Part shown: one piece after another, positions 1 to 56,920 of the stretch | Layout: the number at the start of each line of letters is the position of its first letter | Numbering within the stretch: the stretch's first letter is position 1 | NCBI GenBank assembly: GCA_964016885.1 | Contig: OZ024740.1 | Location: 296,174,001 to 296,238,000 of the forward strand | DNA length: 64,000 bases | Reading direction: 5' to 3' | From: Eledone cirrhosa | Lineage: Eukaryota | Translations under genes and position numbers: made by a program | The notes under the pieces: generated by a model | Told to the model about the DNA's origin: nothing | Seen by the model: only the letters and a program-made list of their open reading frames with translations | The model's database searches: none

Positions 1-186
1 TTTCTTCAAAAAAATCCGAAATTTTCGGCAAAAATTGACGATATTTTCGGGAAAAAACGCCGAAATTTTCGAGGAAAAATGAAAAGATTTTCGGCCAAAA
101 TGACGAAATTTTCGGGAAAAAACGACGAAATTTTCGTGAAAAAATGCCCAAATGTTCGGAAAAAATGACGAAATTTTCGGCAAAAA
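1..186 (+). repeat. Sat-B block (partial, 3' end)
   Basis: 22-bp units aaaaattgacgaaattttcggc; ends with the conserved ...atgcccaaatgttcgg...cggcaaaaa. Confidence 0.9.
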
Positions 187-272
187 TTAGGAGGTAGAAT
201 CTTAGGGGGTAGAACCTTAGGAGGTAAAACCTTAGGAGGTAGAACCAAGGGGTAGAACCTTAGGGGGAATCC
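187..272 (+). repeat. Linker C: 4x15-bp TTAGG[A/G]GGTAGAACC plus two 13-bp variants
   Basis: ttaggaggtagaatc ttagggggtagaacc ttaggaggtaaaacc ttaggaggtagaacc aaggggtagaacc ttagggggaatcc. Confidence 0.95.
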
Positions 273-1779
273 ATTTTTTATTTCGGTGATCCATTTTCTA
301 TTTGGGGGATCCATTTTTTATTTCGGTGATCCATTTTTTATTTGGGTGATCCACTTTTTATTTGATGGATCTCCCAAATAAAAAATGGATCACCCAAATA
401 AAAAATGGATCCCCCAAATAAAAAATGGATCACCCAAATAAAAAATGGATCACCCAAATAAAAACTTGATCCTCCAAATAAAAAATTGATCACCCAAATA
501 AAAAATGGATCCCCCAAATAAAAAATGGATCCCCCAAATAAAAAATGGATCCCCCAAATAAAAAATGGATCACCCAAATAAAAACTGGATCCCCCAAATA
601 AAAAATGGATCACCCAAATAAAAAATTGATCACCCAAATAAAAAATGGATCGCCCAAATAAAAAATGGATCCAAAAAATTAAAAATGGATCACCCAAATA
701 AAAAATGGATCACCCAAATAAAAAATGGATACCCCAAATAAAAAATGGATACCCAAATAAAAAATGGATCACGCAAATAAAAAATGGATCCCCCAAATAA
801 AAAATGGATCACCCAAATAAAAAATGGATCCCCCAAATAAAAAATGGATCACCCAAATAAAAAATGGATCCCCCAAATAAAAAATGGATCACCCAAATAA
901 AAAATGGATCCCCCAAATAAAAAATGGATCCCCCAAATAAAAAATGGATCCCCCAAATAAAAAATGGATCACCCAAATTAAAAATGGATCACCCAAATAA
1001 AAAATGGATCGCCCAAATAAAAAATGGATCACCCAAATAAAAAATGGATCACCCAAATAAAAAATGGATCCCCCAAATAAAAAATAGATCCCCCAAATAA
1101 AAAATGGATCCCCCAAATAAAAAATGGATCACCCTAATAAAAAATGGATCACCCAAATAAAAAATGGATCCCCCAAATAAAAAATGGATCACCCTAATAA
1201 AAAATGGATCCCCCCAAATAAAAAATGGATCACCCAAATAAAAAATGGATCCCTTTTTTATTTAGCGGATCCATTTTTTATTTCGGGCATCCATTTTTTA
1301 TTTGGCTGATCCATTTTTTATTTGGGTGATCCATTCTTTATTTGGGGGATCCATTTTTTATTTCGGTGATCCATTTTTAATTTGGGTGATCCATTTTTTA
1401 TTTGGGGGATCCATTTTTTATTTGGGTGATCCATTTTTTATTTGGGGGATCCATTTTTTATTTCGGTGATCCATTTTTTATTTGGGTGATCCATTTTTTA
1501 TTTGGGGGATCCATTTTTTATTTGGGTGATCCATTTTTTATTTGGTGGATCCAATTTTTATTTGGGGGATCCATTTTTTACTTGGGTGATCCATTTTTTA
1601 TTTGGGGTATCCATTTTTAATTTGGGTGATCCATTTTTTATTTGGGTGATCCATTTTTTATTTGAGGGATACATTTTTTATTTGGGGGATCCATTTTTTA
1701 TTTGATGGATCTCCCAAATAAAAAATGGATCACCCAAATAAAAAATGGATCACCCAAATAAAAAATGGATCACCCAAAT
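273..1779. repeat. Sat-A island, 3 orientation switches (~368, ~1248, ~1708)
   Basis: 20-bp monomers in rev-fwd-rev-fwd arms. Confidence 0.93.
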
Positions 1780-3206
1780 TGATGCTGAAATATTATGGAA
1801 AAAATGACGAAATTTTCTGGAAAAAATGACGAAATTTTTGGAAAAATTGACGAAATATTCTGGATAAATTGACGAAATATTCGTGAAAAATGTCGAAATT
1901 TTTTGGAAACAATGACGAAATTGTCGTCAAAAAATGACGAAATTTTCGGGAAATTTTGACGAAATTTTCTGTGAAAAATGCCGAAATTTTCGGGGAAAAC
2001 GTCGAAATTTTCGGCAAAAATTGTTGAAATTTTCGGCAGAAATTGTTGAAATTTTCGGCTGAAACTGACGAAATTTTCGGGAAAAAATGACGAAATTTCC
2101 GGCAAAAATTTACGAAATTTTCATGAAAAAAATGATGAAATTTTCTGTAAAAATTGACGAAAGTTTCGGGAAAAAATACTGAAATTTTCTGGAAAAAATG
2201 ACGAAATTTTTAGCAAAAATGACGAAATTTTCTGGAAAAATTGACGAAATATCCTGGATAAATTGACGAAATATTCGGCAAAAAATGTCGAAATTTTTTT
2301 GAAAAAATGACGAAATTATCGGCAAAAAATGATGAAATTTTCGGGAAAAATTGACGAAATTTTCTTTGATAAATGCCGAAATTTTCGGGAAAAAACGTCG
2401 AAATTTTCGGCTGAAACTGACGAAATTTTCGGGAAAAAATGATGATATTTTTGGCAAAAATTGACTAAATTTTCCGGAAAAAATGACGAAATATTCGGCA
2501 AAAAATGACGAAATTTTCGTGAAAAAATGCCGAAATTTTCCGCAAAAATTGACTAAATTTTCGGGGAAAATTGACGAAATTTTCGGTAAAAAATCAGGAA
2601 TTTTTAGGCAAAAATTGACGAAATTTTCGGGAAAAATTGACGAAATTTTCGGGGGAAAATGCCGAAACTTTAGGGAAAAAATGATAAAATTTTCGGCAAA
2701 AATTGACTACATTTTCGTGAAAAAATGCCGAAATTTTCCGCAAAAATTGACTAAATTTTCTGTAAAAATTGACGAAATTTTCGGTAAAAAATGAGGAATT
2801 TTTAGGCAAAAATTGACGAAATTTTCGGGAAAAAATGCCGAAATTTTAGGGGAAAAAATGATGAAATTTTCGGCAAAAATTGACGACATTTTCGGAAAAA
2901 AATGACGAAAGTTTCGGGAAAAAATGCCTAAATTTTCGGGAAAAAAGGACGAAATTTTCGGTAAAAAGTGACGAAATTTTCGGCAAAAATTGACGAAATT
3001 TTCGGCAGAATTTGACGAAATTTTCTTCAAAAAAATCCGAAATTTTCGGCAAAAATTGACGCTATTTTCGGGAAAAAACGCCGAAATTTTCAGGAAAAAT
3101 GAAAAAATTTTCGGCCAAAATGACGAAATTTTCGGGAAAAAACGACGAAATTTTCGTGAAAAAATGCCCAAATGTTCGGAAAAAATGACGAAATTTTCGG
3201 CAAAAA
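1780..3206 (+). repeat. Sat-B block
   Basis: ~22-bp units with CGAAATTTTCG core. Confidence 0.93.
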
Positions 3207-3292
3207 TTAGGAGGTAGAATCTTAGGGGGTAGAACCTTAGGAGGTAAAACCTTAGGAGGTAGAACCAAGGGGTAGAACCTTAGGGGGAATCC
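3207..3292 (+). repeat. Linker C
   Basis: Same sequence as 187-272, offset 3020. Confidence 0.95.
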
Positions 3293-4580
3293 ATTTTTTA
3301 TTTCGGTGATCCATTTTCTATTTGGGGGATCCATTTTTTATTTCGGTGATCCATTTTTTATTTGGGTTATCCATTTTTTATTTGATGGATCTCCCAAATA
3401 AAAAATGGATCACCCAAATAAAAAATGGATCACCCAAATAAAAAATGGATCACCCAAATAAAAACTTGATCCTCCAAATAAAAAATGGATCACCCAAATA
3501 AAAAATGGATCCCCCAAATAAAAAATGGATCCCCCAAATAAAAAATGGATCCCCCAAATAAAAAATGGATCACCCAAATAAAAACTGGATCCCCCAAATA
3601 AAAAATGGATCCCCCAAATAAAAAATTGATCACCCAAATAAAAAATGGATCGCCCAAATAAAAAATGGATCCAAAAAATTAAAAATGGATCACCCAAATA
3701 AAAAATGGATCACCCAAATAAAAAATGGATACCCCAAATAAAAAATAGATCACCCAAATAAAAAATGGACCCCCAAATAAAAAATGGATCACCCAAATAA
3801 AAAATGGATCCCCCAAATAAAAAATGGATCACCCAAATAAAAAATGGATCCCCCAAATAAAAAATGGATCCCCCAAATAAAAAATGGATCCCCCAAATAA
3901 AAAATGGATCACCCAAATTAAAAATGTATTACCAAATAAAAAATGGAACGCCCAAATAAAAAATGGATCGCCCAAATAAAAAATGGATCACCCAAATAAA
4001 AAATGGATCACCCAAATAAAAAATGGATCCCCCAAATAAAAAATAGATCCCCCAAATAGAAAATGGATCCCCCAAATAAAAAATGGATCACCCAAATAAA
4101 AAATGGATCCCCCAAATAAAAAATGGATCCCCCAAATAAAGAATGGATCACCCTAATAAAAAATGGATCCCCCCAAATAAAAAATGGATCACCCAAATAA
4201 AAAATGGATCCCTTTTTTATTTGGGGGATCCATTTTTTATTTGGGGGAACCATTTTTTATTTGGGTGATCCATTTTTTACTTGGGTGACCCATTTTTTAT
4301 TTGGGGTATCCATTTTTAATTTGGGTGATCCATTTTTTATTTGGGTGATCCATTTTTTTATTTGAGGGATCCATTTTTTATTTGAGGGATACATTTTTTA
4401 TTTGGGGGATCCATTTTTTATTTGGGAGATCCATTTTTTATTTGGGTTATCCATTTTTTTATTTGAGGGATCCATTTTTTATTTGAGGGATACATTTTTT
4501 ATTTGGGGGATCCATTTTTTATTTGATGGATCTCCCAAATAAAAAATGGATCACCCAAATAAAAAATGGATCACCCAAAT
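3293..4580. repeat. Sat-A island, 3 switches
   Basis: Junctions near 3388, 4208, 4530. Confidence 0.92.
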
Positions 4581-5900
4581 TAATGCTGAAATTTTCTGGA
4601 AAAAATGACGAAATTTTCTGGAAAAAATGACGAAATTTTCAGCAAAAATGACGAAATTTTCTGGAAAAATTGACGAAATATTCTGGATAAATTCACGAAA
4701 TATTCGTGAAAAAATGTCGAAATTTTTTGGAAACAATGACGAAATTATCGGCAAAAAATGACGAAATTTTCGGGAAATATTGACGAAATTTTCTGTGAAA
4801 AATGCCGAAATTTTCGGGAAAAAACGTCGAAATTTTCGGCAAAAATTGTTGAAATTTTCGGCTGAAACTGACGAAATTTTCGGGAAAAAATGACGAAATT
4901 TTTAGCAAAAATGACGAAATTTTCTGTAAAAATTGACGAAATATCCTGGATAAATTGACGAAATATTCGGTAAAAAATGTCGAAATTTTTTGGAAAAAAT
5001 GACGAAATTATCGGCAAAAAATGATGAAATTTTCGGAAAAAATTGACGAAATTTTCTTTGAAAAATGCCGAAATTTTCGGGAAAAAACGTCGAAATTTTC
5101 GCTGAAACTGACGAAATTTTCGGGAAAAAATGATGAAATTTTGGGCAAAAATTGACTAAATTTTCCGGAAAAAATCACGAAATTTTCGGCAAAAAATGAC
5201 GAAATTTTCGTGAAAAAATGCCGAAATTTTCCGCAAAAATTGACTAAATTTTCGGGGAAAATTGACGAAATTGTCGGTAAAAAATCAGGAATTTTTAGGC
5301 AAAAATTGACGAAATTTTCGGGAAAAATTGACGAAATTTTCGGGGGAAAATGCCGAAACTTTAGGGAAAAAAATGATAAAATTTTCGGCAAAAATTGACT
5401 ACATTTTCGGGAAAAAATGACGAAAGTTTCGGCAAAAAGTGACGAAATTTTCTTGGAAAAATGCCGAAATTTATCTGGAAAAAACGTCGAAATTTTCGGC
5501 AAAAATTGTTGAAATTTTCGGCTGAAATTGACGAAATTTTCGGGAAAAAATGATGAAATTTTCGGCAAAAATTGACTAAATTTTCCGGAAAAAATCACGA
5601 AATTTTCGGCAAAAAATGACGAAATTTTCGTGAAAAAATGCCGAAATTTTCCACAAAAATTGACTAAATTTTCGGCAAAAATTGACTAAATTTTCGGCAG
5701 AATTTGACGAAATTTTCTTCAAAAAAATCCGAAATTTTCGGCAAAAATTGACGATATTTTCGGGAAAAAATGCCGAAATTTTCAAGGAAAAATGAAAAAT
5801 TTTTCGGCCAAAATGACGAAATTTTCGGGAAAAAACGACGAAATTTTCGTGAAAAAATGCCCAAATGTTCGGCAAAAAATTACGAAATTTTCGGCAAAAA
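4581..5900 (+). repeat. Sat-B block
   Basis: Starts taatgctgaaattttctgg; 22-bp units. Confidence 0.93.
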
Positions 5901-5971
5901 TTAGGAGGTAGAATCTTAGGGGGTAGAACCTTAGGAGGTAGAACCAAGCGGTAGAACCTTAGGGGGAATCC
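5901..5971 (+). repeat. Linker C (one 15-bp unit shorter; ccaagcgg variant)
   Basis: 3x15-bp units plus tail. Confidence 0.93.
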
Positions 5972-7415: not shown

Positions 7416-7746
7416 TAATGCTGAAATTTTCTGGAAAAAATGACGAAATTTTCTGGAAAAAATGACGAAATTTTCCGGAAGAAATCACGAAATTTTCGGC
7501 AAAAAATGACGAAATTTTCGTGAAAAAATGCCGAAATTTTCCGCAAAAATTGACTAAATTTTCGGCAAAAATTGACTAAATTTTCGGCAGAATTTGACGA
7601 AATTTTCGGGAAAAAACGCCGAAATTTTCGAGGAAAAATGAAAAAAATTTCGGCCAAAATGACGAAATTTTCGGGAAAAAACGACGAAATTTTCGTGAAA
7701 AAATGCCCAAATGTTCGGCAAAAAATTACGAAATTTTCGGCAAAAA
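7416..7746 (+). repeat. Short Sat-B block (internally deleted)
   Basis: Conserved first and last units retained. Confidence 0.92.
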
Positions 7747-7832
7747 TTAGGAGGTAGAATCTTAGGGGGTAGAACCTTAGGAGGTAAAACCTTAGGAGGT
7801 AGAACCAAGCGGTAGAACCTTAGGGGGAATCC
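7747..7832 (+). repeat. Linker C (ccaagcgg variant)
   Basis: 15-bp TTAGG units. Confidence 0.94.
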
Positions 7833-9359: not shown

Positions 9360-10240
9360 TAATGCTGAAATTTTCTGGAAAAAATGACGATATTTTCTGG
9401 AAAAAATGACGAAATTTTCAGCAAAAATGACGAAATTTTCTGGAAAAATTGACGAAAAATTCTGGATAAATTGACGAAATATTCGTGAAAAAATGTCGAA
9501 ATTTTTTGGAAACAATGACGAAATTGTCGTCAAAAAATGACGAAATTTTCGGGAAATATTGACGAAATTTCCTGTGAAAAATGCCGAAATTTTCGGGAAA
9601 AAACGTCGAAATTTTCGGCAAAAATTGTTGAAATTTTCGGCTGAAACTGACGAAATTTTCGGGAAAAAATGACGAAATTTCCGGCAAAAATTTACGAAAT
9701 TTTCATGAAAAAATGATGAAATTTTCTGTAAAAATTGACGAAAGTTTCGGGAAAAAACGTCGAAATTTTCGGCTGAAACTGACGAAATTTTCGGGAAAAA
9801 ATGATGAAATTTTTGGCAAAAATTGACTAAATTTTCCGGAAAAAATGACGAAATATTCGGCAAAAATTGACGAAATTTTCGTGAAAAAATGCCGAAATTT
9901 TTCCGCAAAAATTGACTAAATTTTCTGTAAAAAATGCCGAAATTTTAGGGGAAAAAATGATGAAATTTTCGGCAAAAATTGACGACATTTTCGGGAAAAA
10001 ATGACGAAAGTTTCGGGAAAAAATGCCTAAATTTTCGGGAAAAAAGGACGAAATTTTCGGTAAAAAGTGACGAAATTTTCGGCAAAAATTGACGAAATTT
10101 TCGGGAAAAAATGCCGAAATTTTAGGGGAAAAATGAAAAAAATTTCGGCCAAAATGACGAAATTTTCGGAAAAAACGACGAAATTTTCGTGAAAAAATGC
10201 CCAAATGTTCGGCAAAAAATGACGAAATTTTCGGCAAAAA
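9360..10240 (+). repeat. Sat-B block
   Basis: 22-bp units. Confidence 0.92.
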
Positions 10241-10326
10241 TTAGGAGGTAGAATCTTAGGGGGTAGAACCTTAGGAGGTAAAACCTTAGGAGGTAGAACC
10301 AAGGGGTAGAACCTTAGGGGGAATCC
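10241..10326 (+). repeat. Linker C
   Basis: 15-bp TTAGG units. Confidence 0.94.
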
Positions 10327-11689: not shown

Positions 11690-12064
11690 TAATGCTGAAA
11701 TTTTCTGGAAAAAATGACGAAATTTTCTGGAAAAAATGACGAAATTTTCCGGAAGAAATCACGAAATTTTCGGCAAAAAATGACGAAATTTTCGTGAAAA
11801 AATGCCGAAATTTTCCGCAAAAATTGACTAAATTTTCGGCAAAAATTGACTAAATTTTCGGCAGAATTTGACGAAATTTTCTTCAAAAAAATCCGAAATT
11901 TTCGGCAAAAATTGACGATATTTTCGGGAAAAAACGCCGAAATTTTCGAGGAAAAATGAAAAAAATTTCGGCCAAAATGACGAAATTTTCGGAAAAAAAC
12001 GACGAAATTTTCGTGAAAAAATGCCCAAATGTTCGGCAAAAAATTACGAAATTTTCGGCAAAAA
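11690..12064 (+). repeat. Short Sat-B block
   Basis: Shares the ccggaagaaatcacga join with 7416-7746. Confidence 0.92.
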
Positions 12065-12150
12065 TTAGGAGGTAGAATCTTAGGGGGTAGAACCTTAGGA
12101 GGTAAAACCTTAGGAGGTAGAACCAAGCGGTAGAACCTTAGGGGGAATCC
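12065..12150 (+). repeat. Linker C (ccaagcgg variant)
   Basis: 15-bp TTAGG units. Confidence 0.94.
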
Positions 12151-14511
12151 ATTTTTTATTTCGGTGATCCATTTTCTATTTGGGGGATCCATTTTTTATT
12201 TCGGTGATCCATTTTTTATTTGGGTGACCCATTTTTTATTTCATGGATCTCCCAAATAAAAAATGGATCCCCCAAATAAAAGATGGATCCCCCAAATAAA
12301 AAATGGATCACCCTAATAAAAAATTGATCCCCCCAAATAAAAAATGGATCCATTTTTTATTTGGGTGATCCATTTTTTATTTGGGTGATCCATTTTTCAT
12401 TTGGGTGATCCATTTTTTATTTGGTTGATCCATCTTTTATTAGGGGTATCCATTTTTAATTTGGGTGATCCATCTTTTATTAGGGGTATCCATTTTTAAT
12501 TTGGGTGATCCATTTTTTATTTGGGTGATCCATTTTTTATTTGAGGGATCCATTTTTTATTTGGGGGATCCATTTTTTATTTGATGGATCTCCCAAATCA
12601 AAAATGGATCACCCAAATAAAAAATGGATCCCTCAAATAAAAAATGGATCACCCAAATAAAAAATGGATCACCCAAATAAAAAATGGATCCCCCAAATAA
12701 AAAATTGATCACCCAAATAAAAAATGGATCACCCAAATAAAAAATGGATCCCCCAAATAAAAAATGGTTCACCCAAATAAAAAATGGATCACCCAAATAA
12801 AAAATGGATCCCCTAAATAAAAAATGGATCACCAAATCAAAAATGGATCACCCAAATAAAAAATGGATCCCCCAAATAAAAAATGGATCACCCAAATAAA
12901 AAATGGATCCCCCAAATAAAAACGGATCACCCAAATAAAAAATGGATCACCCAAATAAAAAATGGATCCCCCAAATAAAAAATGAATAACCCAAATAAAA
13001 AATGGATCCCTTTTTTATTTAGAGGATCCATTTTTTATTTCGGGGATCCATTTTTTATTTGGGTGATCCATTTTTTATTTGGGTGATCCATTCTTTATTT
13101 GGGGCATCCATTTTTTATTTGGGTGATCCATTTTTCATTTGGGTGATCCATTTTTTATTTGGGGGATCCATTTATTATTTCGGTGATCCATTTTTTATTT
13201 GGGGGATCCATTTTTTATTTCGGTGATCCATTTTTTATTTGGGTGATCCATTTTTTATTTGGGGGATCCATTTTTTATTTGGGTGATCCATTTTTATTTG
13301 GGGTTCCATTTTTTATTTGGGTGATCCATTTTTTATTTGGGTGATCCATTTTTTATTTGGTTGATCCATTTTTTATTAGGGGTATCCATTTTTAATTTGG
13401 GTGATCCATTTATTATTTGGGTGATCCATTTTTTATTTGAGCGATCCATTTTGTATTTGGGGGATCCATTTTTTATTTGATGGATCTCCCAAATAAAAAA
13501 TGGATCACCCAAATAAAAAATGGATCCCTCAAATAAAAAATGGATCACCCAAATAAAAAATGGATCCCCCAAATAAAAAATTGATCACCTAAATAAAAAA
13601 TGGATCACCGAAATAAAAAATGGATCCCCCAAATAAAAAATGGTTCACCCAAATAAAAAATGGATCACCCAAATAAAAAATGGATCCCCTAAATAAAAAA
13701 AGGATCACCCAAATCAAAAATGGATCACCCAAATAAAAAATGGATCCCCCAAATAAAAAATGGATCACCCAAATAAAAAATGGATCCCCAAATAAAAATG
13801 GATCACCCAAATAAAAAATGGATCACCCAAATAAAAGATGAATCACCCAAATAAAAAATGGATCACCCAAATAAAAAATGGATCCCCCAAATAAAAAAGT
13901 GATCACCCAAATAAAAAATGGATCCCTTTTTTATTTAGCGGATCCATTTTTTATTTCGGGGATCCATTTTTTATTTGGGTGATCCATTTTTTATTTGGGG
14001 TATCCATTTTTTATTTGGGTGATCCATTTTTTATTTGGGGGATCCATTTTTTATTTGGGTGATCCATTTTTTATTTGGGTGATCCATTTTTTATTTGGGG
14101 GATCCATTTTTTATTTGGGTGATCCATTTTTTATTTGGTGGATCCATTTTTTATTTGGGGGATCCATTTTTTATTTGGGTGATCCATTTTTTATTTGGGT
14201 GATCCATTTTTTATTTGGGGGATCTATTTTTTATTTGGGTGATCAATTTTTTATTTGGGTGATCCATTTTTTATTTGGTGATCCATTTTTTATTTGGGGG
14301 AACCATTTTTTATTTGGGTGATCCATTTTTTATTTGGGTGATCCATTTTTTATTTGGGGTATCCATTTTTAATTTGGGTGATCCATTTTTTATTTGGGTG
14401 ATCCATTTTTTATTTGAGGGATACATTTTTTATTTGGGGGATCCATTTTTTATTTGATGGATCTCCCAAATAAAAAATGGATCACCGAAATAAAAAATGG
14501 ATCACCCAAAC
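12151..14511. repeat. Sat-A island, 7 switches
   Basis: Junctions near 12247, 12348, 12588, 13006, 13483, 13921, 14460. Confidence 0.92.
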
Positions 14512-15568
14512 TAATGCTGAAATTTTCTGGAAAAAATGACGATATTTTCTGGAAAAAATGACGAAATTTTCAGCAAAAATGACGAAATTTTCTGGAAAAA
14601 TTGACGAAAAATTCTGGATAAATTGACGAAATATTCGTGAAAAAATGTCGAAATTTTTTGGAAACAATGACGAAATTGTCGTCAAAAAATGACGAAATTT
14701 TCGGGAAATATTGACGAAATTTTCTGTGAAAAATGCCGAAATTTTCGGGAAAAAACGTCGAAATTTTCGGCAAAAATTGTTGAAATTTTCGGCTGAAACT
14801 GACGAAATTTTCGGGAAAAAATGACGAAATTTCCGGCAAAAATTTACGAAATTTTCATGAAAAAATGCTGAAATTTTCTGTAAAAATTGACGAAAGTTTC
14901 GGGAAAAAATGCTGAAATTTTCTGGAAAAAATGACGAAATTTTTAGCAAAAATGACGAAATTTTCTGGAAAAATTGACGAAATATCCTGGATAAATTGAC
15001 GAAATATTCGGTAAAAAATGTCGAAATTTTTTTGAAAAAATGACGTAATTATCGGCAAAAAATTATGAAATTTTCGGGAAAAAACGTCGAAATTTTCGGC
15101 TGAAACTAACGAAATTTTCGGGAAAAAATGTTGAAATTTTTGCCAAAAATTGACTAAATTTTCCGGAAAAAATGACGAAATATTCGGCAAAAAATGACGA
15201 AATTTTCGTGAAAAAATGCCGAAATTTTTCCGCAAAAATTGACTAAATTTTCTGTAAAAAATGCCGAAATTTTAGGGGAAAAAATGATGAAATTTTCGGC
15301 AAAAATTGACGACATTTTCGGGAAAAAATGACGAAAGTTTCAGGAAAAAATGCCTAAATTTTCGGGAAAAAAGGACGAAATTTTCGGTAAAAAGTGACGA
15401 AATTTTCGGCAAAAATTGACGAAATTTTCGGGGAAAAATGCCGAAATTTTAGGGGAAAAATGAAAAAAATTTCGGCCAAAATGACGAAATTTTCGGAAAA
15501 AAACGACGAAATTTTCGTGAAAAAATGCCCAAATGTTCGGCAAAAAATTACGAAATTTTCGGCAAAAA
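14512..15568 (+). repeat. Sat-B block
   Basis: 22-bp units. Confidence 0.92.
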
Positions 15569-15654
15569 TTAGGAGGTAGAATCTTAGGGGGTAGAACCTT
15601 AGGAGGTAGAACCTTAGGAGGTAGAACCAAGCGGTAGAACCTTAGGGGGAATCC
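15569..15654 (+). repeat. Linker C (ccaagcgg variant)
   Basis: 15-bp TTAGG units. Confidence 0.94.
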
Positions 15655-17693: not shown

Positions 17694-18754
17694 TAATGCT
17701 GAAATTTTCTGGAAAAAATGACGATATTTTCTGGAAAAAATGACGAAATTTTCAGCAAAAATGACGAAATTTTCTGGAAAAATTGACGAAAAATTCTGGA
17801 TAAATTGACGAAATATTCGTGAAAAAATGTCGAAATTTTTTGGAAACAATGACGAAATTGTCGTCAAAAAATGACGAAATTTTCGGGAAATATTGACGAA
17901 ATTTTCTGTGAAAAATGCCGAAATTTTCGGGAAAAAACGTCGAAATTTTCGGCAAAAATTGTTGAAATTTTCGGCTGAAACTGACGAAATTTTCGGGAAA
18001 AAATGACGAAATTTCCGGCAAAAAATTACGAAATTTTCATGAAAAAATGCTGAAATTTTCTGTAAAAATTGACGAAAGTTTCGGGAAAAAAATGCTGAAA
18101 TTTTCTGGAAAAAATGACGAAATTTTTAGCAAAAATGACGAAATTTTCTGGAAAAATTGAACGAAATATCCTGGATAAATTGACGAAATATTCGGTAAAA
18201 AATGTCGAAATTTTTTTGAAAAAATGACGTAATTATCGGCAAAAAATTATGAAATTTTCGGGAAAAAACGTCGAAATTTTCGGCTGAAACTAACGAAATT
18301 TTCGGGAAAAAATGATGAAATTTTTGGCAAAAATTGACTAAATTTTCCGGAAAAAATGACGAAATATTCGGCAAAAAATGACGAAATTTTCGTGAAAAAA
18401 TGCCGAAATTTTTCCGCAAAAATTGACTAAATTTTCTGTAAAAAATGCCGAAATTTTAGGGGAAAAAAATGATGAAATTTTCGGCAAAAATTGACGACAT
18501 TTTCGGGAAAAAATGACGAAAGTTTCGGGAAAAAATGCCTAAATTTTCGGGAAAAAAGGACGAAATTTTCGGTAAAAAGTGACGAAATTTTCGGCAAAAA
18601 TTGACGAAATTTTCGGGAAAAAAATGCCGAAATTTTAGGGGAAAAATGAAAAAAATTTCGGCCAAAATGACGAAATTTTCGAAAAAAAACGACGAAATTT
18701 TCGTGAAAAAATGCCCAAATGTTCGGCAAAAAATGACGAAATTTTCGGCAAAAA
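17694..18754 (+). repeat. Sat-B block
   Basis: Near copy of 14512-15568 with several 1-bp indels. Confidence 0.92.
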
Positions 18755-18839
18755 TTAGGAGGTAGATCTTAGGGGGTAGAACCTTAGGAGGTAAAACCTT
18801 AGGAGGTAGAACCAAGGGGTAGAACCTTAGGGGGAATCC
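18755..18839 (+). repeat. Linker C (1-bp deletion in first unit)
   Basis: ttaggaggtagatcttagg... Confidence 0.93.
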
Positions 18840-20340: not shown

Positions 20341-21752
20341 TAATGCTGAAATTTTCTGGAAAAAATGACGAAATTTTCTGGAAAAAATGACGAAATTTTC
20401 AGCAAAAATGACGAAATTTTCTGGAAAAATTGACGAAATATTCTGGATAAAGTGACGAAATATTCGTGAAAAAATGTCGAAATTTTTTGGAAACAATGAC
20501 GAAATTGTCGTCAAAAAACAACGAAATTTTCGGGAAATATTGACGAAATTTTCTGTGAAAAATGCCCGAAATTTTCGGGAAAAAAGGTCGAAATTTTCGG
20601 AAAAAAACTGTTGAAATTTTCGGCAAAAATTGTTGAAATTTTCGGCTGAAACTGACGAAATTTTCGGGAAAAAATGACGAATTTTCCGGCAAAAATTTAC
20701 GAAATTTTCATGAAAAAATGATGAAATTTTCTGTAAAAATTGACGAAAGTTTCGGGAAAAAATGCTGAAATTTTCTGGAAAAAATGACGAAATTTTCTGG
20801 AAAAATTGACGAAATATCCTGTATAAATTGACGAAATATTCGGTAAAAAATGTCGAAATTTTTTTGAAAAAATGACGAAATTATCGGCAAAAAATGATGA
20901 AATTTTCGGGAAAAATTGACGAAATTTTCTTTGATAAATGCCGAAATTTTCGGGAAAAAACGTTCGAAATTTTCGGCTGAAACTGACGAAATTTTCGGGA
21001 AAAAATGATGAAATTTTGGGCAAAAATTGACTAAATTTTCCGGAAAAAATGACGAAATATTCGGCAAAAAATGACGAAATTTTCGTGAAAAAATGCCGAA
21101 ATTTTCCGCAAAAATTGACTAAAATTTCGGGAAAAATTGACGAAATTTTCGGGAAAAAATGCCGAAACTTTCGGGAAAAAAATTACGAAATTTTAGGGCA
21201 AAAAATGATGAGATTTTCGGCAAAAATTGACTACATTTTCGGGAAAAAATGACGAAAGTTTCGGCAAAAAGTGACGAAATTTTCTTGAAAAAATGCCGAA
21301 ATTTTCGGCAAAAACTGACGAAATTTTCGTGAAAAAATGCCGAAATTTTCCGCAAAAATTGACGAAATTTTCTGTAAAAATTGACGAAATTTTCGGTAAA
21401 AAATGAGGAATTTTTAGGCAAAAATTGACGAAATTTTAGGGGAAAAATGAAAAAATTTTCGGCAAAAATTGACGACATTTTCGGGAAAAAATGACGAAAG
21501 TTTCGGGAAAAAATGCCTAAATTTTCGGGAAAAAAGGACGAAATTTTCGGTAAAAGTGACGAAATTTTCGGCAAAAATTGACGAAATTTTCGGCAGAATT
21601 TGACGAAATTTTCGGGAAAAAACGCCGAAATTTTCGGGGGAAAATGAAAAAGTTTTCGGCCAAAATGACGAAATTTTCGTGAAAAAACGAGGAAATTTTC
21701 ATGAAAAAATGCCCAAATGTTCAGCAAAAAATGACGAAATTTTCGGCAAAAA
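20341..21752 (+). repeat. Sat-B block
   Basis: 22-bp units. Confidence 0.92.
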
Positions 21753-21838
21753 TTAGGAGGTAGAATCTTAGGGGGTAGAACCTTAGGAGGTAAAACCTTA
21801 GGAGGTAGAACCAAGGGGTAGAAGCTTAGGGGGAATCC
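21753..21838 (+). repeat. Linker C (gaagctt variant)
   Basis: 15-bp TTAGG units. Confidence 0.94.
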
Positions 21839-22785
21839 ATTTTTTATTTCGGTGATCCATTTTCTATTTGGGGGATCCATTTTTTATTTCGGTGATCCAT
21901 TTTTTATTTGGGTGATCCATTTTTTATTTGATGGATCTCCCAAATAAAAAATGGATCACCCAAATAAAAAATGGATCCCCCAAATAAAAAATGGATCACC
22001 CAAATAAAAAATGGATCACCCAAATAAAAACTTGATCCTCCAAATAAAAAATGGATCACCCAAATAAAAAATGGATCCCCCAAATAAAAAATGGATCCCC
22101 CAAATAAAAAATGGATCCCCCAAATAAAAAATGGATCACCCAAATAAAAACTGGATCCCCCAAATAAAAAATGGATCCCCCAAATAAAAAATTGATCACC
22201 CAAATAAAAAATGGATCGCCCAAATAAAAAATGGATCCAAAAAATTAAAAATGGATCCCCCAAATAAAAAATGGATCCCCCAAATAAAAAATGGATCCCC
22301 CAAATAAAAAATGGATCACCCAAATTAAAAATTGATCACCCAAATAAAAAATGGATCGCCCAAATAAAAAATGGATCGCCCAAATAAAAAATGGATCACC
22401 CAAATAAAAAATGGATCACCCAAATAAAAAATGGATCCCCCAAATAAAAAATAGATCCCCCAAATAAAAAATGGATCGCCCAAATAAAAAATGGATCCAA
22501 AAAATTAAAAATGGATCCCCCAAATAAAAAATGGATCCCCCAAATAAAAAATGGATCCCCCAAATAAAAAATGGATCCCCCAAATAAAAAATGGATCACC
22601 CAAATTAAAAATTGATCACCCAAATAAAAAATGGATCGCCCAAATAAAAAATGGATCGCCCAAATAAAAAATGGATCACCCAAATAAAAAATGGATCACC
22701 CAAATAAAAAATGGATCCCCCAAATAAAAAATAGATCCCCCAAATAAAAAATGGATCACCCAAATAAAAAATGGATCACCCAAAT
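21839..22785. repeat. Sat-A island, 1 switch
   Basis: Junction near 21934. Confidence 0.93.
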
Positions 22786-25180
22786 TAATGCTGAAATTTT
22801 CTGGAAAAAATGACGAAATTTTCTGGAAAAAATGACGAAATTTTCAGCAAAAATGACGAAATTTTCTGGAAAAATTGACGAAATATTCTGGATAAATTGA
22901 CGAAATATTCGTGAAAAATGTCGAAATTTTTTGGAAACAATGACGAAATTTTCGGGAAATATTGACGAAATTTTCTGTGAAAAATGCCGAAATTTTCGGG
23001 AAAAAACGTCGAAATTTTGGTCAAAAATTGTTGAAATTTTCGGCAAAAATTGTTGAAATTTTCGGCTGAAACTGACGAAATTTTCGGGAAAAAATGATGA
23101 AATTTTCGGCAAAAATTGACTAAATGTTCAGGAAAAAATGACGAAATTTCCGGCAAAAATTTACGAAATTTTCATGAAAAAATGATGAAATTTTCTGTAA
23201 ATTTGACGAAAATTTCGGGAAAAAATGCTGAAATTTTCTGGAAAATATGACGAAATTTTTAGCAAAAATGACGAAATTTTCTGGAAAAATTGACGAAATA
23301 TCCTGGATAAATTGACGAAATATTCGGGAAAAAATGTCGAAATTTTTTTGAAAAAATGACGAAATTATCGGCAAAAAATGATGAAATTTTCGGGAAAAAT
23401 TGACGAAATTTTCTTTGAAAAATGCCGAAATTTTCGGGAAAAAACGTCGAAATTTTCGGGAAAAAATGATGAAATTTTTGGCAACAACTGACTAAATTTT
23501 CCGAAAAAAATGACGAAATATTCGGCAAAAAATGACGAAATTTTCGTGAAAAAATGCCGAAATTTTCCGCAAAAATTGACTAAATTTTCGGGAAAAATTG
23601 ACGAAATTTTCGGTAAAAAATCAGGAATTTTTAGGCAAAAATTGACGAAATTTTCGGGAAAAATTGACGAAATTTTCGGGAAAAAATGCCGAAACTTTAG
23701 GGAAAAAAATGATAAAATTTTCGGCAAAAATTGACGACATTTTCGGGAAAAAATGACGAAAGTTTCGGCAAAAAGTGACGAAATTTTCTTGGAAAAATGC
23801 CGTAATTTTCTGGAAAAAACGTCGAAATTTTCGGCAAAAATTGTTGAAATTTTCGGCTGAAATTGACGAAATTTTCGGGAAAAAATGATGAAATTTTCGG
23901 CATAAATTGACTAAATTTACGGAAAAAATGACGAAAATATCGGCAAAAATTGACGAAATTTTCGTGAAAATATGCCGAAATTTTCCGCAAAAATTGACTA
24001 AATTTTCTGTAAAAATTGACGAAATTTTCGGTAAAAAATGAGGAATTTTTAGGCAAAAATTGACGAAATTTTCGGGTAAAAATGCCGAAATTTTAGGGGG
24101 GAAAATGATGAAATTTTCGGCAAAAATTGACGACATTTTCGGGAAAAAATGACGAAAGTTTCGGGAAAAAAGGACGAAATTTTCGGGAAAAAAGGACGAA
24201 ATTTTCTGTGAAAAATGCCGAAATTTTCGGGAAAAAAGGTCGAAATTTTCGGCAAAAACTGTTGAAATTTTCGGCAAAAATTGTTGAAATTTTCGGCTGA
24301 AACTGACGAAATTTTCGGGAAAAAATGACGAACTTTCCGGCAAAAATTTTCGAAATTTTCATGAAAAAATGATGAAATTTTCTGTAAAAATTGACGAAAG
24401 TTTCTGGAAAAAATGCTGAAATTTTCTGGAAAAAATGACGAAATTTTCTGGAAAAATTGACGAAATATCCTGGATAAATTGACGAAATATTCGGTAAAAA
24501 ATGTCGAAATTTTTTTGAAAAAATGACGAAATTATCGGCAAAAAATGACGAAATTTTCGTGAAAAAATGCCGAAATTTTCCGCAAAAATTGACTAAAATT
24601 TCGGGAAAAATTGACGAAATTTTCGGGAAAAAATGCCGAAACTTTAGGGAAAAAATGATGAGATTTTCGGCAAAAATTGACTACATTTTCGGGAAAAAAT
24701 GACGAAAGTTTCGGCAAAAAGTGACGAAATTTTCGGCAAAAACTGACGAAATTTTCGTGAAAAAATGCCGAAATTTTCCGCAAAAATTGACGAAATTTTC
24801 TGTAAAAATTGACGAAATTTTCGGTAAAAAATGAGGAATTTTTAGGCAAAAATTGACGAAATTTTAGGGGAAAAATGAAAAAATTTTCGGCAAAAATTGA
24901 CGACATTTTCGGGAAAAAATGACGAAAGTTTCGGGAAAAAATGCCTAAATTTTCGGGAAAAAAGGACGAAATTTTCGGTAAAAGTGACGAAATTTTCGGC
25001 AAAAATTGACGAAATTTTCGGCAGAATTTGACGAAATTTTCGGGAAAAAACGCCGAAATTTTCGGGGAAAAATGAAAAAGTTTTCGGCCAAAATGACGAA
25101 ATTTTCGGGAAAAAACGAGGAAATTTTCATGAAAAAATGCCCAAATGTTCAGCAAAAAATGACGAAATTTTCGGCAAAAA
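22786..25180 (+). repeat. Longest Sat-B block (~2.4 kb)
   Basis: 22-bp units. Confidence 0.93.
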
Positions 25181-25266
25181 TTAGGAGGTAGAATCTTAGG
25201 GGGTAGAACCTTAGGAGGTAAAACCTTAGGAGGTAGAACCAAGGGGTAGAAGCTTAGGGGGAATCC
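25181..25266 (+). repeat. Linker C (gaagctt variant)
   Basis: 15-bp TTAGG units. Confidence 0.94.
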
Positions 25267-27013
25267 ATTTTTTATTTCGGTGATCCATTTTCTATTTGGG
25301 GGATCCATTTTTTATTTCGGTGATCCATTTTTTATTTGGGTGATCCATTTTTTATTTGATGGATCTCCCAAATAAAAAATGGATCACCCAAATAAAAAAT
25401 GGATCCCCCAAATAAAAAATGGATCACCCAAATAAAAAATGGATCACCCAAATAAAAACTTGATCCTCCAAATAAAAAATGGATCACCCAAATAAAAAAT
25501 GGATCCCCCAAATAAAAAATGGATCCCCCAAATAAAAAATGGATCCCCCAAATAAAAAATGGATCACCCAAATAAAAACTGGATCCCCCAAATAAAAAAT
25601 GGATCCCCCAAATAAAAAATTGATCACCCAAATAAAAAATGGATCGCCCAAATAAAAAATGGATCCAAAAAATTAAAAATGGATCCCCCAAATAAAAAAT
25701 GGATCCCCCAAATAAAAAATGGATCACCCAAATTAAAAATTGATCACCCAAATAAAAAATGGATCGCCCAAATAAAAAATGGATCGCCCAAATAAAAAAT
25801 GGATCACCCAAATAAAAAATGGATCACCCAAATAAAAAATGGATCCCCCAAATAAAAAATAGATCCCCCAAATAAAAAATGGATCGCCCAAATAAAAAAT
25901 GGATCCAAAAAATTAAAAATGGATCCCCCAAATAAAAAATGGATCCCCCAAATAAAAAATGGATCCCCCAAATAAAAAATGGATCACCCAAATTAAAAAT
26001 TGATCACCCAAATAAAAAATGGATCGCCCAAATAAAAAATGGATCGCCCAAATAAAAAATGGATCACCCAAATAAAAAATGGATCACCCAAATAAAAAAT
26101 GGATCCCCCAAATAAAAAATAGATCCCCCAAATAAAAAATGGATCCCCCAAATAAAAAATTGATCACCCAAATAAAAAATGGATCGCCCAAATAAAAAAT
26201 GGATCCAAAAAATTAAAAATGGATCCCCCAAATAAAAAATGGATCCCCCAAATAAAAAATGGATCACCCAAATTAAAAATTGATCACCCAAATAAAAAAT
26301 GGATCGCCCAAATAAAAAATGGATCGCCCAAATAAAAAATGGATCACCCAAATAAAAAATGGATCACCCAAATAAAAAATGGATCCCCCAAATAAAAAAT
26401 AGATCCCCCAAATGAAAAATGGATCGCCCAAATAAAAAATGGATCCAAAAAATTAAAAATGGATCCCCCAAATAAAAAATGGATCCCCCAAATAAAAAAT
26501 GGATCCCCCAAATAAAAAATGGATCACCCAAATTAAAAATTGATCACCCAAATAAAAAATGGATCGCCCAAATAAAAAATGGATCGCCCTAATAAAAAAT
26601 GGATCACCCAAATAAAAAATGGATCACCCAAATAAAAAATGGATCCCCCAAATAAAAAATAGATCCCCCAAATAAAAAATGGATCCCCCAAATAAAAAAT
26701 TGATCACCCAAATAAAAAATGGATCGCCCAAATAAAAAATGGATCCAAAAAATTAAAAATGGATCCCCCAAATAAAAAATGGATCCCCCAAATAAAAAAT
26801 GGATCCCCCAAATAAAAAATGGATCACCCAAATTAAAAATTGATCACCCAAATAAAAAATGGATCGCCCAAATAAAAAATGGATCGCCCAAATAAAAAAT
26901 GGATCACCCAAATAAAAAATGGATCACCCAAATAAAAAATGGATCCCCCAAATAAAAAATAGATCCCCCAAATAAAAAATGGATCACCCAAATAAAAAAT
27001 GGATCACCCAAAT
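25267..27013. repeat. Sat-A island, 1 switch, internal 540-bp higher-order repeat
   Basis: Marker ggatccaaaaaattaaaaat at 25661, 25901, 26201, 26441, 26741. Confidence 0.92.
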
Positions 27014-28617
27014 TAATGCTGAAATTTTCTGGAAAAAATGACGAAATTTTCTGGAAAAAATGACGAAATTTTCAGCAAAAATGACGAAATTTTCTGGAAA
27101 AATTGACGAAATATTCTGGATAAATTGACGAAATATTCGTGAAAAATGTCGAAATTTTTTGGAAACAATGACGAAATTTTCGGGAAATATTGACGAAATT
27201 TTCTGTGAAAAATGCCGAAATTTTCGGGAAAAAACGTCGAAATTTTGGTCAAAAATTGTTGAAATTTTCGGCAAAAATTGTTGAAATTTTCGGCTGAAAC
27301 TGACGAAATTTTCGGGAAAAAATGATGAAATTTTCGGCATAAATTGACTAAATTTACGGAAAAAATGACGAAAATATCGGCAAAAATTGACGAAATTTTC
27401 GTGAAAATATGCCGAAATTTTCCGCAAAAATTGACTAAATTTTCTGTAAAAATTGACGAAATTTTCGGTAAAAAATGAGGAATTTTTAGGCAAAAATTGA
27501 CGAAATTTTCGGGTAAAAATGCCGAAATTTTAGGGGGGAAAATGATGAAATTTTCGGCAAAAATTGACGACATTTTCGGGAAAAAATGACGAAAGTTTCG
27601 GGAAAAAAGGACGAAATTTTCGGGAAAAAAGGACGAAATTTTCTGTGAAAAATGCCGAAATTTTCGGGAAAAAAGGTCGAAATTTTCGGCAAAAACTGTT
27701 GAAATTTTCGGCAAAAATTGTTGAAATTTTCGGCTGAAACTGACGAAATTTTCGGGAAAAAATGACGAACTTTCCGGCAAAAATTTTCGAAATTTTCATG
27801 AAAAAATGATGAAATTTTCTGTAAAAATTGACGAAAGTTTCTGGAAAAAATGCTGAAATTTTCTGGAAAAAATGACGAAATTTTCTGGAAAAATTGACGA
27901 AATATCCTGGATAAATTGACGAAATATTCGGTAAAAAATGTCGAAATTTTTTTGAAAAAATGACGAAATTATCGGCAAAAAATGACGAAATTTTCGTGAA
28001 AAAATGCCGAAATTTTCCGCAAAAATTGACTAAAATTTCGGGAAAAATTGACGAAATTTTCGGGAAAAAATGCCGAAACTTTAGGGAAAAAATGATGAGA
28101 TTTTCGGCAAAAATTGACTACATTTTCGGGAAAAAATGACGAAAGTTTCGGCAAAAAGTGACGAAATTTTCGGCAAAAACTGACGAAATTTTCGTGAAAA
28201 AATGCCGAAATTTTCCGCAAAAATTGACGAAATTTTCTGTAAAAATTGACGAAATTTTCGGTAAAAAATGAGGAATTTTTAGGCAAAAATTGACGAAATT
28301 TTAGGGGAAAAATGAAAAAATTTTCGGCAAAAATTGACGACATTTTCGGGAAAAAATGACGAAAGTTTCGGGAAAAAATGCCTAAATTTTCGGGAAAAAA
28401 GGACGAAATTTTCGGTAAAAGTGACGAAATTTTCGGCAAAAATTGACGAAATTTTCGGCAGAATTTGACGAAATTTTCGGGAAAAAACGCCGAAATTTTC
28501 GGGGAAAAATGAAAAAGTTTTCGGCCAAAATGACGAAATTTTCGGGAAAAAACGAGGAAATTTTCATGAAAAAATGCCCAAATGTTCAGCAAAAAATGAC
28601 GAAATTTTCGGCAAAAA
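27014..28617 (+). repeat. Sat-B block
   Basis: 22-bp units. Confidence 0.93.
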
Positions 28618-28703
28618 TTAGGAGGTAGAATCTTAGGGGGTAGAACCTTAGGAGGTAAAACCTTAGGAGGTAGAACCAAGGGGTAGAAGCTTAGGGGGAA
28701 TCC
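28618..28703 (+). repeat. Linker C (gaagctt variant)
   Basis: Copy of 25181-25266 at offset 3437. Confidence 0.94.
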
Positions 28704-30450
28704 ATTTTTTATTTCGGTGATCCATTTTCTATTTGGGGGATCCATTTTTTATTTCGGTGATCCATTTTTTATTTGGGTGATCCATTTTTTATTTGATGGA
28801 TCTCCCAAATAAAAAATGGATCACCCAAATAAAAAATGGATCCCCCAAATAAAAAATGGATCACCCAAATAAAAAATGGATCACCCAAATAAAAACTTGA
28901 TCCTCCAAATAAAAAATGGATCACCCAAATAAAAAATGGATCCCCCAAATAAAAAATGGATCCCCCAAATAAAAAATGGATCCCCCAAATAAAAAATGGA
29001 TCACCCAAATAAAAACTGGATCCCCCAAATAAAAAATGGATCCCCCAAATAAAAAATTGATCACCCAAATAAAAAATGGATCGCCCAAATAAAAAATGGA
29101 TCCAAAAAATTAAAAATGGATCCCCCAAATAAAAAATGGATCCCCCAAATAAAAAATGGATCACCCAAATTAAAAATTGATCACCCAAATAAAAAATGGA
29201 TCGCCCAAATAAAAAATGGATCGCCCAAATAAAAAATGGATCACCCAAATAAAAAATGGATCACCCAAATAAAAAATGGATCCCCCAAATAAAAAATAGA
29301 TCCCCCAAATAAAAAATGGATCGCCCAAATAAAAAATGGATCCAAAAAATTAAAAATGGATCCCCCAAATAAAAAATGGATCCCCCAAATAAAAAATGGA
29401 TCCCCCAAATAAAAAATGGATCACCCAAATTAAAAATTGATCACCCAAATAAAAAATGGATCGCCCAAATAAAAAATGGATCGCCCAAATAAAAAATGGA
29501 TCACCCAAATAAAAAATGGATCACCCAAATAAAAAATGGATCCCCCAAATAAAAAATAGATCCCCCAAATAAAAAATGGATCCCCCAAATAAAAAATTGA
29601 TCACCCAAATAAAAAATGGATCGCCCAAATAAAAAATGGATCCAAAAAATTAAAAATGGATCCCCCAAATAAAAAATGGATCCCCCAAATAAAAAATGGA
29701 TCACCCAAATTAAAAATTGATCACCCAAATAAAAAATGGATCGCCCAAATAAAAAATGGATCGCCCAAATAAAAAATGGATCACCCAAATAAAAAATGGA
29801 TCACCCAAATAAAAAATGGATCCCCCAAATAAAAAATAGATCCCCCAAATGAAAAATGGATCGCCCAAATAAAAAATGGATCCAAAAAATTAAAAATGGA
29901 TCCCCCAAATAAAAAATGGATCCCCCAAATAAAAAATGGATCCCCCAAATAAAAAATGGATCACCCAAATTAAAAATTGATCACCCAAATAAAAAATGGA
30001 TCGCCCAAATAAAAAATGGATCGCCCTAATAAAAAATGGATCACCCAAATAAAAAATGGATCACCCAAATAAAAAATGGATCCCCCAAATAAAAAATAGA
30101 TCCCCCAAATAAAAAATGGATCCCCCAAATAAAAAATTGATCACCCAAATAAAAAATGGATCGCCCAAATAAAAAATGGATCCAAAAAATTAAAAATGGA
30201 TCCCCCAAATAAAAAATGGATCCCCCAAATAAAAAATGGATCCCCCAAATAAAAAATGGATCACCCAAATTAAAAATTGATCACCCAAATAAAAAATGGA
30301 TCGCCCAAATAAAAAATGGATCGCCCAAATAAAAAATGGATCACCCAAATAAAAAATGGATCACCCAAATAAAAAATGGATCCCCCAAATAAAAAATAGA
30401 TCCCCCAAATAAAAAATGGATCACCCAAATAAAAAATGGATCACCCAAAT
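28704..30450. repeat. Sat-A island, 1 switch (copy of 25267-27013)
   Basis: Same private variants at offset 3437. Confidence 0.93.
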
Positions 30451-32119
30451 TAATGCTGAAATTTTCTGGAAAAAATGACGAAATTTTCTGGAAAAAATGA
30501 CGAAATTTTCAGCAAAAATGACGAAATTTTCTGGAAAAATTGACGAAATATTCTGGATAAATTGACGAAATATTCGTGAAAAATGTCGAAATTTTTTGGA
30601 AACAATGACGAAATTTTCGGGAAATATTGACGAAATTTTCTGTGAAAAATGCCGAAATTTTCGGGAAAAAACGTCGAAATTTTGGTCAAAAATTGTTGAA
30701 ATTTTCGGCAAAAATTGTTGAAATTTTCGGCTGAAACTGACGAAATTTTCGGGAAAAAATGATGAAATTTTCGGCAAAAATTGACTAAATTTTCCGGAAA
30801 AAATGACGAAATTTCCGGCAAAAATTTACGAAATTTTCATGAAAAAATGATGAAATTTTCTGTAAATTTGACGAAAATTTCGGGAAAAAATGCTGAAATT
30901 TTCTGGAAAATATGACGAAATTTTTAGCAAAAATGACGAAATTTTCTGGAAAAATTGACGAAATATCCTGGATAAATTGACGAAATATTCGGGAAAAAAT
31001 GTCGAGATTTTTTTGAAAAAATGACGAAATTATCGGCAAAAAATGATGAAATTTTCGGGAAAAATTGACGAAATTTTCTTTGAAAAATGCCGAAATTTTC
31101 GGGAAAAAACGTCGAAATTTTCGGGAAAAAATGATGAAATTTTTGGCAACAACTGACTAAATTTTCCGGAAAAAATGACGAAATATTCGGCAAAAAATGA
31201 CGAAATTTTCGTGAAAAAATGCCGAAATTTTCCGCAAAAATTGACTAAATTTTCGGGAAAAATTGACGAAATTTTCGGTAAAAAATCAGGAATTTTTAGG
31301 CAAAAATTGACGAAATTTTCGGGAAAAATTGACGAAATTTTCGGGAAAAAATGCCGAAACTTTAGGGAAAAAAATGATAAAATTTTCGGCAAAAATTGAC
31401 GACATTTTCGGGAAAAAATGACGAAAGTTTCGGCAAAAAGTGACGAAATTTTCTTGGAAAAATGCCGTAATTTTCTGGAAAAAACGTCGAAATTTTCGGC
31501 AAAAATTGTTGAAATTTTCGGCTGAAATTGACGAAATTTTCGGGAAAAAATGATGAAATTTTCGGCATAAATTGACTAAATTTACGGAAAAAATGACGAA
31601 AATATCGGCAAAAATTGACGAAATTTTCGTGAAAATATGCCGAAATTTTCCGCAAAAATTGACTAAATTTTCTGTAAAAATTGACGAAATTTTCGGTAAA
31701 AAATGAGGAATTTTTAGGCAAAAATTGACGAAATTTTCGGGTAAAAATGCCGAAATTTTAGGGGGAAAAATGATGAAATTTTCGGCAAAAATTGACGACA
31801 TTTTCGGGAAAAAATGACGAAAGTTTCGGGAAAAAAGGACGAAATTTTCGGGAAAAAAGGACGAAATTTTCGGTAAAAAGTGACGAAATTTTCGGCAAAA
31901 ATTGACGAAATTTTCGGCAGAATTTGACGAAATTTTCTTCAAAAAAATCCGAAGTTTTCGGCAAATATTGACGATGTTTTCGGGAAAAAAGCCCGAAATT
32001 TTCGAGGAAAAATGAAAAAATTTTCGGCCAAAATAACGAAATTTTCGGGAAAAAACGACGAAATTTTCGTGAAAAATGCCCAAATGTTCGGCAAAAAATG
32101 ACGAAATTTTCGGCAAAAA
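30451..32119 (+). repeat. Last Sat-B block
   Basis: First ~1.4 kb matches the block starting at 22786 at offset ~7665. Confidence 0.92.
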
Positions 32120-32175
32120 TTAGGAGGTAGAATCTTAGGGGGTAGAACCAAGGGGTAGAACCTTAGGGGGAATCC
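32120..32175 (+). repeat. Last, shortest linker C (2x15-bp plus tail)
   Basis: ttaggaggtagaatc ttagggggtagaacc aaggggtagaacc ttagggggaatcc. Confidence 0.93.
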
Positions 32176-56800: not shown

Positions 56801-56920
56801 CCCAATAAAAAATGGATCCCCAAATAATAAATGGATCACCCAAATAAAAAATGGATCCCCCAAATAAAAAATGGATCCCCCAAATAAAAAATGGATCACC
56901 CAAATAACAAATGGATCACC
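47880..56920. repeat. ~4.57-kb tandem segmental duplication within Sat-A
   Basis: Identical repeat-derived ORFs at offset 4572 (48627/53199, 49469/54041, 49914/54486); ggatccacc marker at 47891 and 52463. Confidence 0.85.

Follow-up and report, generated by a model that had tools for sequence, protein, structure and literature searches.

A dyad satellite of 20-bp units in Eledone cirrhosa with palindrome-centred strand switches and fixed-edge B-C cassettes

A 64,000-nucleotide stretch of the Eledone cirrhosa genome (assembly GCA_964016885.1, contig OZ024740.1, positions 296,174,001 to 296,238,000 of the forward strand), here called the window and numbered 1-64000, consists entirely of tandem repeats; all counts, junctions and comparisons given below were obtained within it. 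Its major component is a 20-bp satellite monomer, unit A, which alternates between the two strands and is interspersed on the left-hand side with cassettes of two further repeats, B and C. We propose that the array is a composite dyad satellite that likely goes back to rare strand switches centred on a palindrome in the A monomer. In-register direct duplication would then have multiplied a single ancestral A-B-C unit, and exchange between inverted arms has likely turned parts of the array round on occasion. To this reading we assign a probability of about 70%. The junction classes, their register in the monomer, their two orientations, the colinearity of the B blocks, the linkage of markers across cassette edges and the recombination inside B are direct observations. 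A first-pass annotation of 1-32175 had described a strict three-part grammar of forward A, B, C and reverse A. This grammar is real, yet it covers only half of the structure, since A switching runs on through 32172-64000 without B or C. It was likely left by the tandem copying of a single composite unit, rather than by a jumping element.

The repeat pattern of the window is far beyond chance. 12-mers that occur at least three times cover 99.8% of it, the longest gap in coverage being 15 bp, at a G+C content of about 31%. Unit A is present in 2470 monomers, which are arranged in 108 single-strand arms, 54 per strand, with a median length of 405 bp (range 20-2409 bp). Between these arms there are 96 A/A strand switches, i.e. 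about 2 per kb of A. The length of A is unbalanced between the strands, 31.1 kb being forward and 18.3 kb reverse, so that the dyads are not length-balanced. Unit B is a 22-bp repeat with a mean pairwise identity of about 80%, and unit C is a repeat of about 15 bp with 3-5 copies per block. The array is non-coding satellite DNA.

The strand switches are anything but scattered. All except one of the 96 centre on the palindromic GATC of the A monomer, and the monomers flanking the switches are 20/20 bp in 84 cases, differ from this by one base in 11, and measure 17 bp in the remaining case. In the second-commonest monomer, the GGATCC register offers a self-complementary run of 6 bp, whereas the other 19 registers offer at most 3; in the commonest monomer the GATC register has a 4-bp run versus at most 3 elsewhere. 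Switches from reverse to forward are of a single type, J1, which carries the same diagnostic bases in 54/54 copies and consists of paired arms around an unpaired 10-nt centre (for example 21931-21940); 46 copies share the orientation of this example and eight are reversed. None of the J1 copies is a perfect palindrome. The 42 switches from forward to reverse, collectively J2, comprise 24 of type J2a, 14 of type J2b, three perfect 34-bp palindromes and one centre deletion. J2a has one mismatch beside GGATCC (for example 13918-13927) and occurs 14 times in the orientation of this example and 10 times reversed; the two orientations of J2b are represented by 4 and 10 copies. Since so few junction classes recur, the junctions go back to a small number of founding events and were not remade each time. 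We infer that they were formed by strand switching after palindrome pairing. The predicted hairpins at the junctions (-42 to -51 kcal/mol per 120 nt, compared with -5.6 inside an arm) follow directly from the inversion.

Two minor groups of junctions stand apart. The perfect 34-bp palindromes, at 6168, 8029 and 12347, compare with 93 imperfect junctions and are perhaps short-lived or derived from one recent event. The sole switch off GATC (56915-56935) is a near-perfect palindrome whose left side ends at the same base as the A|B junction. The idea that this junction near 56920 is an empty B-C site was dismissed, as its flanks match the local higher-order unit of about 1.38 kb, which indicates a deletion across a J2 centre.

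Cassettes were defined by segmentation of the whole window together with junction searches, one 8-bp 'B-' call inside B being merged as noise. Twelve B-C cassettes lie in 1-32171, all of them on the plus strand. The first (cassette 0, 1-268) is cut by the window start and retains the end of B (1-186) and C (187-268). Then follow cassette 1 (1780-3288), with 65 B units in 1780-3206 and C in 3207-3288, cassette 2 (4581-5967), with 60 units in 4581-5900 and a short C in 5901-5967, and cassette 3 (7416-7828), with 15 units in 7416-7746 and C. Cassette 4 (9360-10322) has 40 units in 9360-10240, cassette 5 (11690-12146) 17 units in 11690-12064, cassette 6 (14512-15650) 48 units in 14512-15568, and cassette 7 (17694-18835) 48 units in 17694-18754, each with C; cassette 6 is a recombinant of the two B-end types. 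Cassettes 8 (20341-21834; 64 units in 20341-21752), 9 (22786-25262; 109 units in 22786-25180) and 10 (27014-28699; 73 units in 27014-28617) likewise end in C, and cassette 11 (30451-32171) joins 76 units in 30451-32119 to a short C in 32120-32171.

The copy number of B ranges from 15 to 109 units per cassette, and the edges are fixed. Directly after the A|B junction stands T(A/G)ATGCTGAAA in 11/11 cases, the last 16 bases of B are identical in all 12 blocks, and the same 13 bases are found wherever C meets reverse A (12/12). C is 82 bp long in nine of the 12 cassettes and 81, 67 and 52 bp long in the remaining three, and is thus not fully invariant. The reverse arm after C counts five monomers in 10 of the 12 cassettes and seven and nine in the other two; the forward arm before B counts 2-82. 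The uniform orientation of B, its constant first unit and end, and the succession of C by a short reverse A arm, all noted in the first-pass annotation, were borne out by these data. Its statement that boundaries are invariant while interiors vary holds for the A|B, B|C and C|A edges. B and C keep one orientation throughout, the cassette has no internal dyad, and B-C stands where a J2 junction would otherwise be.

Several lines of evidence point to growth by direct duplication. For 99 of the 108 arms the best-matching arm is in the same orientation, for five it is in the opposite one, and four are tied; a mirrored variant tract was detected in just one of 96 adjacent arm pairs. The B blocks are colinear, with 67-100% of units in the best ordered match versus 23-46% when the order is shuffled, and they are derived from one ordered array by deletion and duplication. 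Variants are linked across the A|B edge in 11/11 and across the B|C edge in 12/12 cassettes, and the 5' and 3' types of B occur in all four combinations. The linkage at the edges and the mixed B end types together imply that the cassette is inherited along with its flanks and that recombination takes place inside B. In 1-32300 there are 11 near-exact direct matches that reach 700 bp or more, and eight of them cross a cassette edge. The longest tract is an exact tandem duplication on the plus strand (23864-30776; 3476 bp, offset 3437), which has both ends in B and amounts to a circularly permuted whole B-C-A unit. At about three times the length of the next exact match (1177 bp), it either arose by duplication very recently or reflects an over-expansion of the assembly at this place.

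Direct copying would also account for the numerical regularity of the A islands. The eleven complete islands between cassettes (269-30450) hold 37 strand switches, and each of them starts in reverse and ends in forward orientation. The switch counts (3, 3, 5, 5, 3, 7, 5, 3, 1, 1, 1) and the C-to-C periods of 1824-3504 bp are exactly those of the first-pass annotation, which had taken the odd parity as a sign that each cassette is a loop between inverted arms. We rejected odd parity as evidence for an element on logical grounds: it is forced by the reverse start and forward end of every island and constitutes no independent evidence. The uniform B orientation and the odd counts need no element boundary. 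In a toy simulation that allowed only in-register direct duplication and deletion, 5241/5241 islands were odd and 200/200 runs remained intact; this outcome is true by construction, and the model illustrates the logic only.

The right-hand part of the window (32172-64000) is an A-only domain with the same monomer and junction types, 59 switches with junctions in both orientations, and higher-order periods of about 1.37-1.39, 1.59 and 4.57 kb. Some junctions have likely been flipped. Across the window, reversed copies of J1, J2a and J2b retain their linked diagnostic variants, and all four orientation pairings of neighbouring J1 and J2 junctions are present (31, 29, 11 and 5). Whole-block inversion alone is insufficient to explain this combination; it takes an exchange between arms of opposite orientation. 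A direct trace of such inter-arm exchange is an exact inverted match of 218 bp between adjacent arms (37864-38081 and 38517-38734), which includes two monomer variants unique to the pair in the window. Flips have been rare, as the eight reversed J1 copies appear to form about three lineages. To the left of position 32300, 25/25 J1 and 10/10 J2a copies are in one orientation, and the uniform orientation of B is therefore part of a domain that has grown only by direct copying.

Monomers that occur only once make up 11% in 32271-41310 and 8% in 57071-60136, compared with 3% in the left half, 2% in 48232-57070 and 0.5% in 60137-64000. These differences suggest older layers between younger expansions. 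Region 48232-57070 is occupied by a 4572-bp higher-order repeat in tandem, which contains several switches including a reversed J1.

From these data, a four-step scenario may be put forward. In the founding step, same-sense strands would pair at GGATCC, where alone A is self-complementary over 6 bp, and synthesis would cross to the other strand, with 0-2 extra native bases kept; J1 would have been made once and J2 a few times. B and C would then have been joined in once, replacing a forward-to-reverse junction, at short shared stretches. Thereafter, unequal exchange, slippage or rolling-circle copying between monomers on the same strand may have duplicated and deleted blocks. Because such events alter copy number, add or remove switches only in pairs and cannot shift unique edges, they would leave behind what appears as a grammar. 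Finally, crossover or conversion between forward and reverse arms might have inverted single junctions in the older right half. The array would probably serve as structural heterochromatin, possibly (peri)centromeric.

The arms around B-C in all 11 complete cassettes, with tandem repeats on either side of a variable non-coding middle, are reminiscent of foldback-type transposons, and the first-pass annotation had left the choice between a foldback-like element and a composite macrosatellite. Foldback elements have long terminal inverted repeats composed of outer flanking and tandem domains, a variable middle and 8-10-bp duplications, according to the available parts of one report (PMC4079207). 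If the array descended from such an element, the A arrays would be its inverted arms, J1 the head-to-tail copy junction, the 10-nt centre a single target-site duplication, B-C the middle, and the J2 types internal deletions. In accordance with this, J1 is one junction in 54/54 copies with paired arms and a 10-nt centre, and the opposite junction is multiform and includes B-C; an invariant head-to-head junction opposite varied ones would also be expected from an inverted-repeat element that had formed tandem dimers. Tandem dimers of P-element and hobo retain one duplication between copies and can grow into arrays (PMC5932611, as far as its accessible text goes). However, the 10-nt centre of J1 is ordinary A in register with the adjacent arm, as predicted by a strand switch and not by random insertion. 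A non-repetitive outer domain is lacking, as no stretch outside repeated 12-mers exceeds the 15 bp mentioned above. The arms flanking B-C are not mirrored: only 3/35 mirrored monomer positions are identical, one of them a rare variant, and the mirror scores of the flank pairs (0-4) are no higher than those of other opposite-strand pairs (mean about 3). In two cassettes examined for it, no inverted repeat was detected at the ends (end-to-end score 4 versus a shuffled mean of 5.4-5.5), and the best direct repeats flanking them were 3 bp, within a window that offers no unique flanks. Furthermore, eight of the 11 long near-exact duplications span a cassette edge, and a Pfam scan of six of the 26 longest open frames gave no family. 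Foldback ancestry is thus improbable, and of the two options in the first-pass annotation it is the macrosatellite that is supported.

Mobility of B-C by itself, as a small Helitron- or MITE-like or captured module inserted into A repeatedly, has fixed ends and a variable internal array in its favour, and satellite-carrying non-autonomous Helitrons with ordered arrays do exist (PMC13085455, in the portion available). We regard it as very unlikely, for all copies share one position within A and one orientation and are co-inherited with flanking A variants, inverted termini are lacking in the two cassettes tested, and a matching empty site is found in 0/42 forward-to-reverse junctions. Hairpin-primed (dog-bone or rolling-hairpin) replication that still generates the alternating arms, with head-to-head and tail-to-tail junctions taking turns in flip and flop forms, would fit the strict alternation of junctions, their two isomers and their long hairpins. 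Yet under this process each arm would be a copy of the adjacent one, which is at odds with the single mirrored pair among 96 and with the 99 of 108 arms that match best in direct orientation; as the main engine it is already largely refuted, and we give it an equally small chance. Least probable of all is that the inversions are sequencing or assembly artefacts, such as fold-back chimeric reads or over-expanded repeats. The 3476-bp copy that is 100% identical to its neighbour could be explained in this way, but chimeras predict mirrored arms and scattered breakpoints, whereas the arms here are unmirrored and each recurring junction carries mutations that it has accumulated itself.

A further reading is that the array is a convergent centromere-type dyad satellite built from 20-bp units. 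The monomer palindrome would seed in-register switches, and imperfect junctions, about 2 per kb, would be kept as putative sites of cruciform formation or protein binding and be actively flip-flopped by exchange between neighbouring arms. We consider this unlikely; if it were true, macro-dyad architecture would extend beyond its genus, with a sequence-level mechanism.

Some points weigh against the composite dyad satellite with rare founding switches and direct expansion. The evidence comes from the single 64-kb window. The founding switches represent only about 3-5 lineages, so that palindrome anchoring rests on few events, and J1 is slightly less diverged than bulk A (0.35 versus 0.61 differences per 23 bp), which could reflect constraint, although the copies are not independent. 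That duplication ends avoid cassette edges is a weak test, with 0/22 near an edge and about one expected at random. One exchange maps no more than some 30 bp from the C|A edge, as both C variants are found with both types of post-C arm. Moreover, the 218-bp inverted match outdid only 15 shuffles (maximum 179).

Among described systems, the macro-dyad satellites of Tribolium are the closest, as judged from the accessible portions of the reports on T. madens TmSat1/TmSat2 (PMC13081366) and T. freemani TfSat01/TfSat03 (PMC12581902). They are found in flour-beetle centromere regions, where multi-kilobase arms form megabase (peri)centromeric domains on most chromosomes. In 2026 Tribolium was named as the only genus with documented cases, their origin being unexplained (PMC13081366, PMC12581902). 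Both systems have a major satellite in inverted subarrays (here 108 arms and 96 switches), few conserved types of inversion junction (here one J1 and four J2 types), and a minor satellite that is embedded as a cassette, varies in copy number and has fixed transition zones. In both, even numbers of subarrays, i.e. odd switch counts, predominate, the T. freemani arrays being mostly even. On the other hand, the monomers of the present array measure 20, 22 and about 15 bp, compared with 225 and 704 bp in T. madens, and its arms have a median of 405 bp instead of several kb. The Tribolium cassette has an internal dyad, whereas the cassette described here is one-way and replaces an A inversion junction. 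The junctions of the present array lie on a monomer-internal palindrome and exist as flip and flop isomers, for which we found no counterpart in the available text on Tribolium.

More distant parallels were judged from similarly partial sources. The holocentromere satellites Chio1 and Chio2 of Chionographis japonica (PMC10264360) share short monomers (23 and 28 bp), internal dyads and mixed forward and reverse arrays; they differ in being closely related to each other, and the text at hand mentions neither a fixed cassette nor a typing of junctions, the comparison being one of descriptions and not of sequences. Human HSat3B5 and beta-satellite arrays (bioRxiv 10.1101/2021.07.12.452052) also show many strand switches, with more than 200 breakpoints, but these are spread over very large pericentromeric arrays, in contrast to about 2 switches per kb of A. 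The foldback elements Tetris, FB, TFB1 and FARE (PMC4079207) share inverted tandem-repeat arms and a non-coding middle of variable size, and differ from the present array, which has no outer flanking domain or matched arms and only 3-bp direct repeats at the edges of the two cassettes examined for them.

The array shows the logic of macro-dyads on a scale about ten times finer. Variation among its monomers makes its history legible as few founding switches on an internal palindrome, an engine of direct duplication and occasional flips. Fixed junctions and odd switch counts arise without selection or transposition, which provides a null model for functional claims on such junctions. In our opinion, a dense, palindrome-anchored, flip-flopping dyad satellite is more notable than the three-part grammar.

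Stop-free frames of 150 codons or more number 26 in the window and are confined to the minus strand. These open frames (150-277 codons) were rejected as genes, being stop-free translations of repeats with no Pfam hit in the six scanned. An Rfam scan and pattern scans of GTDB genomes returned no matches, and 2900-3700 found no counterpart in a distant blastn search of plasmids and phages, although the low-complexity filter may have masked one. Open-access full-text and keyword searches yielded no description of the A-B-C array. As the sequence and text collections are mainly prokaryotic and open-access, absence from them says little on novelty. TTAGG starts most C units (e.g. in 3207-3288), and the C strand is G-rich. 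These features loosely resemble the insect-type telomere motif, TTAGG, and a telomeric origin of C may be considered. A small internal palindrome or near-palindrome is present in all three units, A, B and C.

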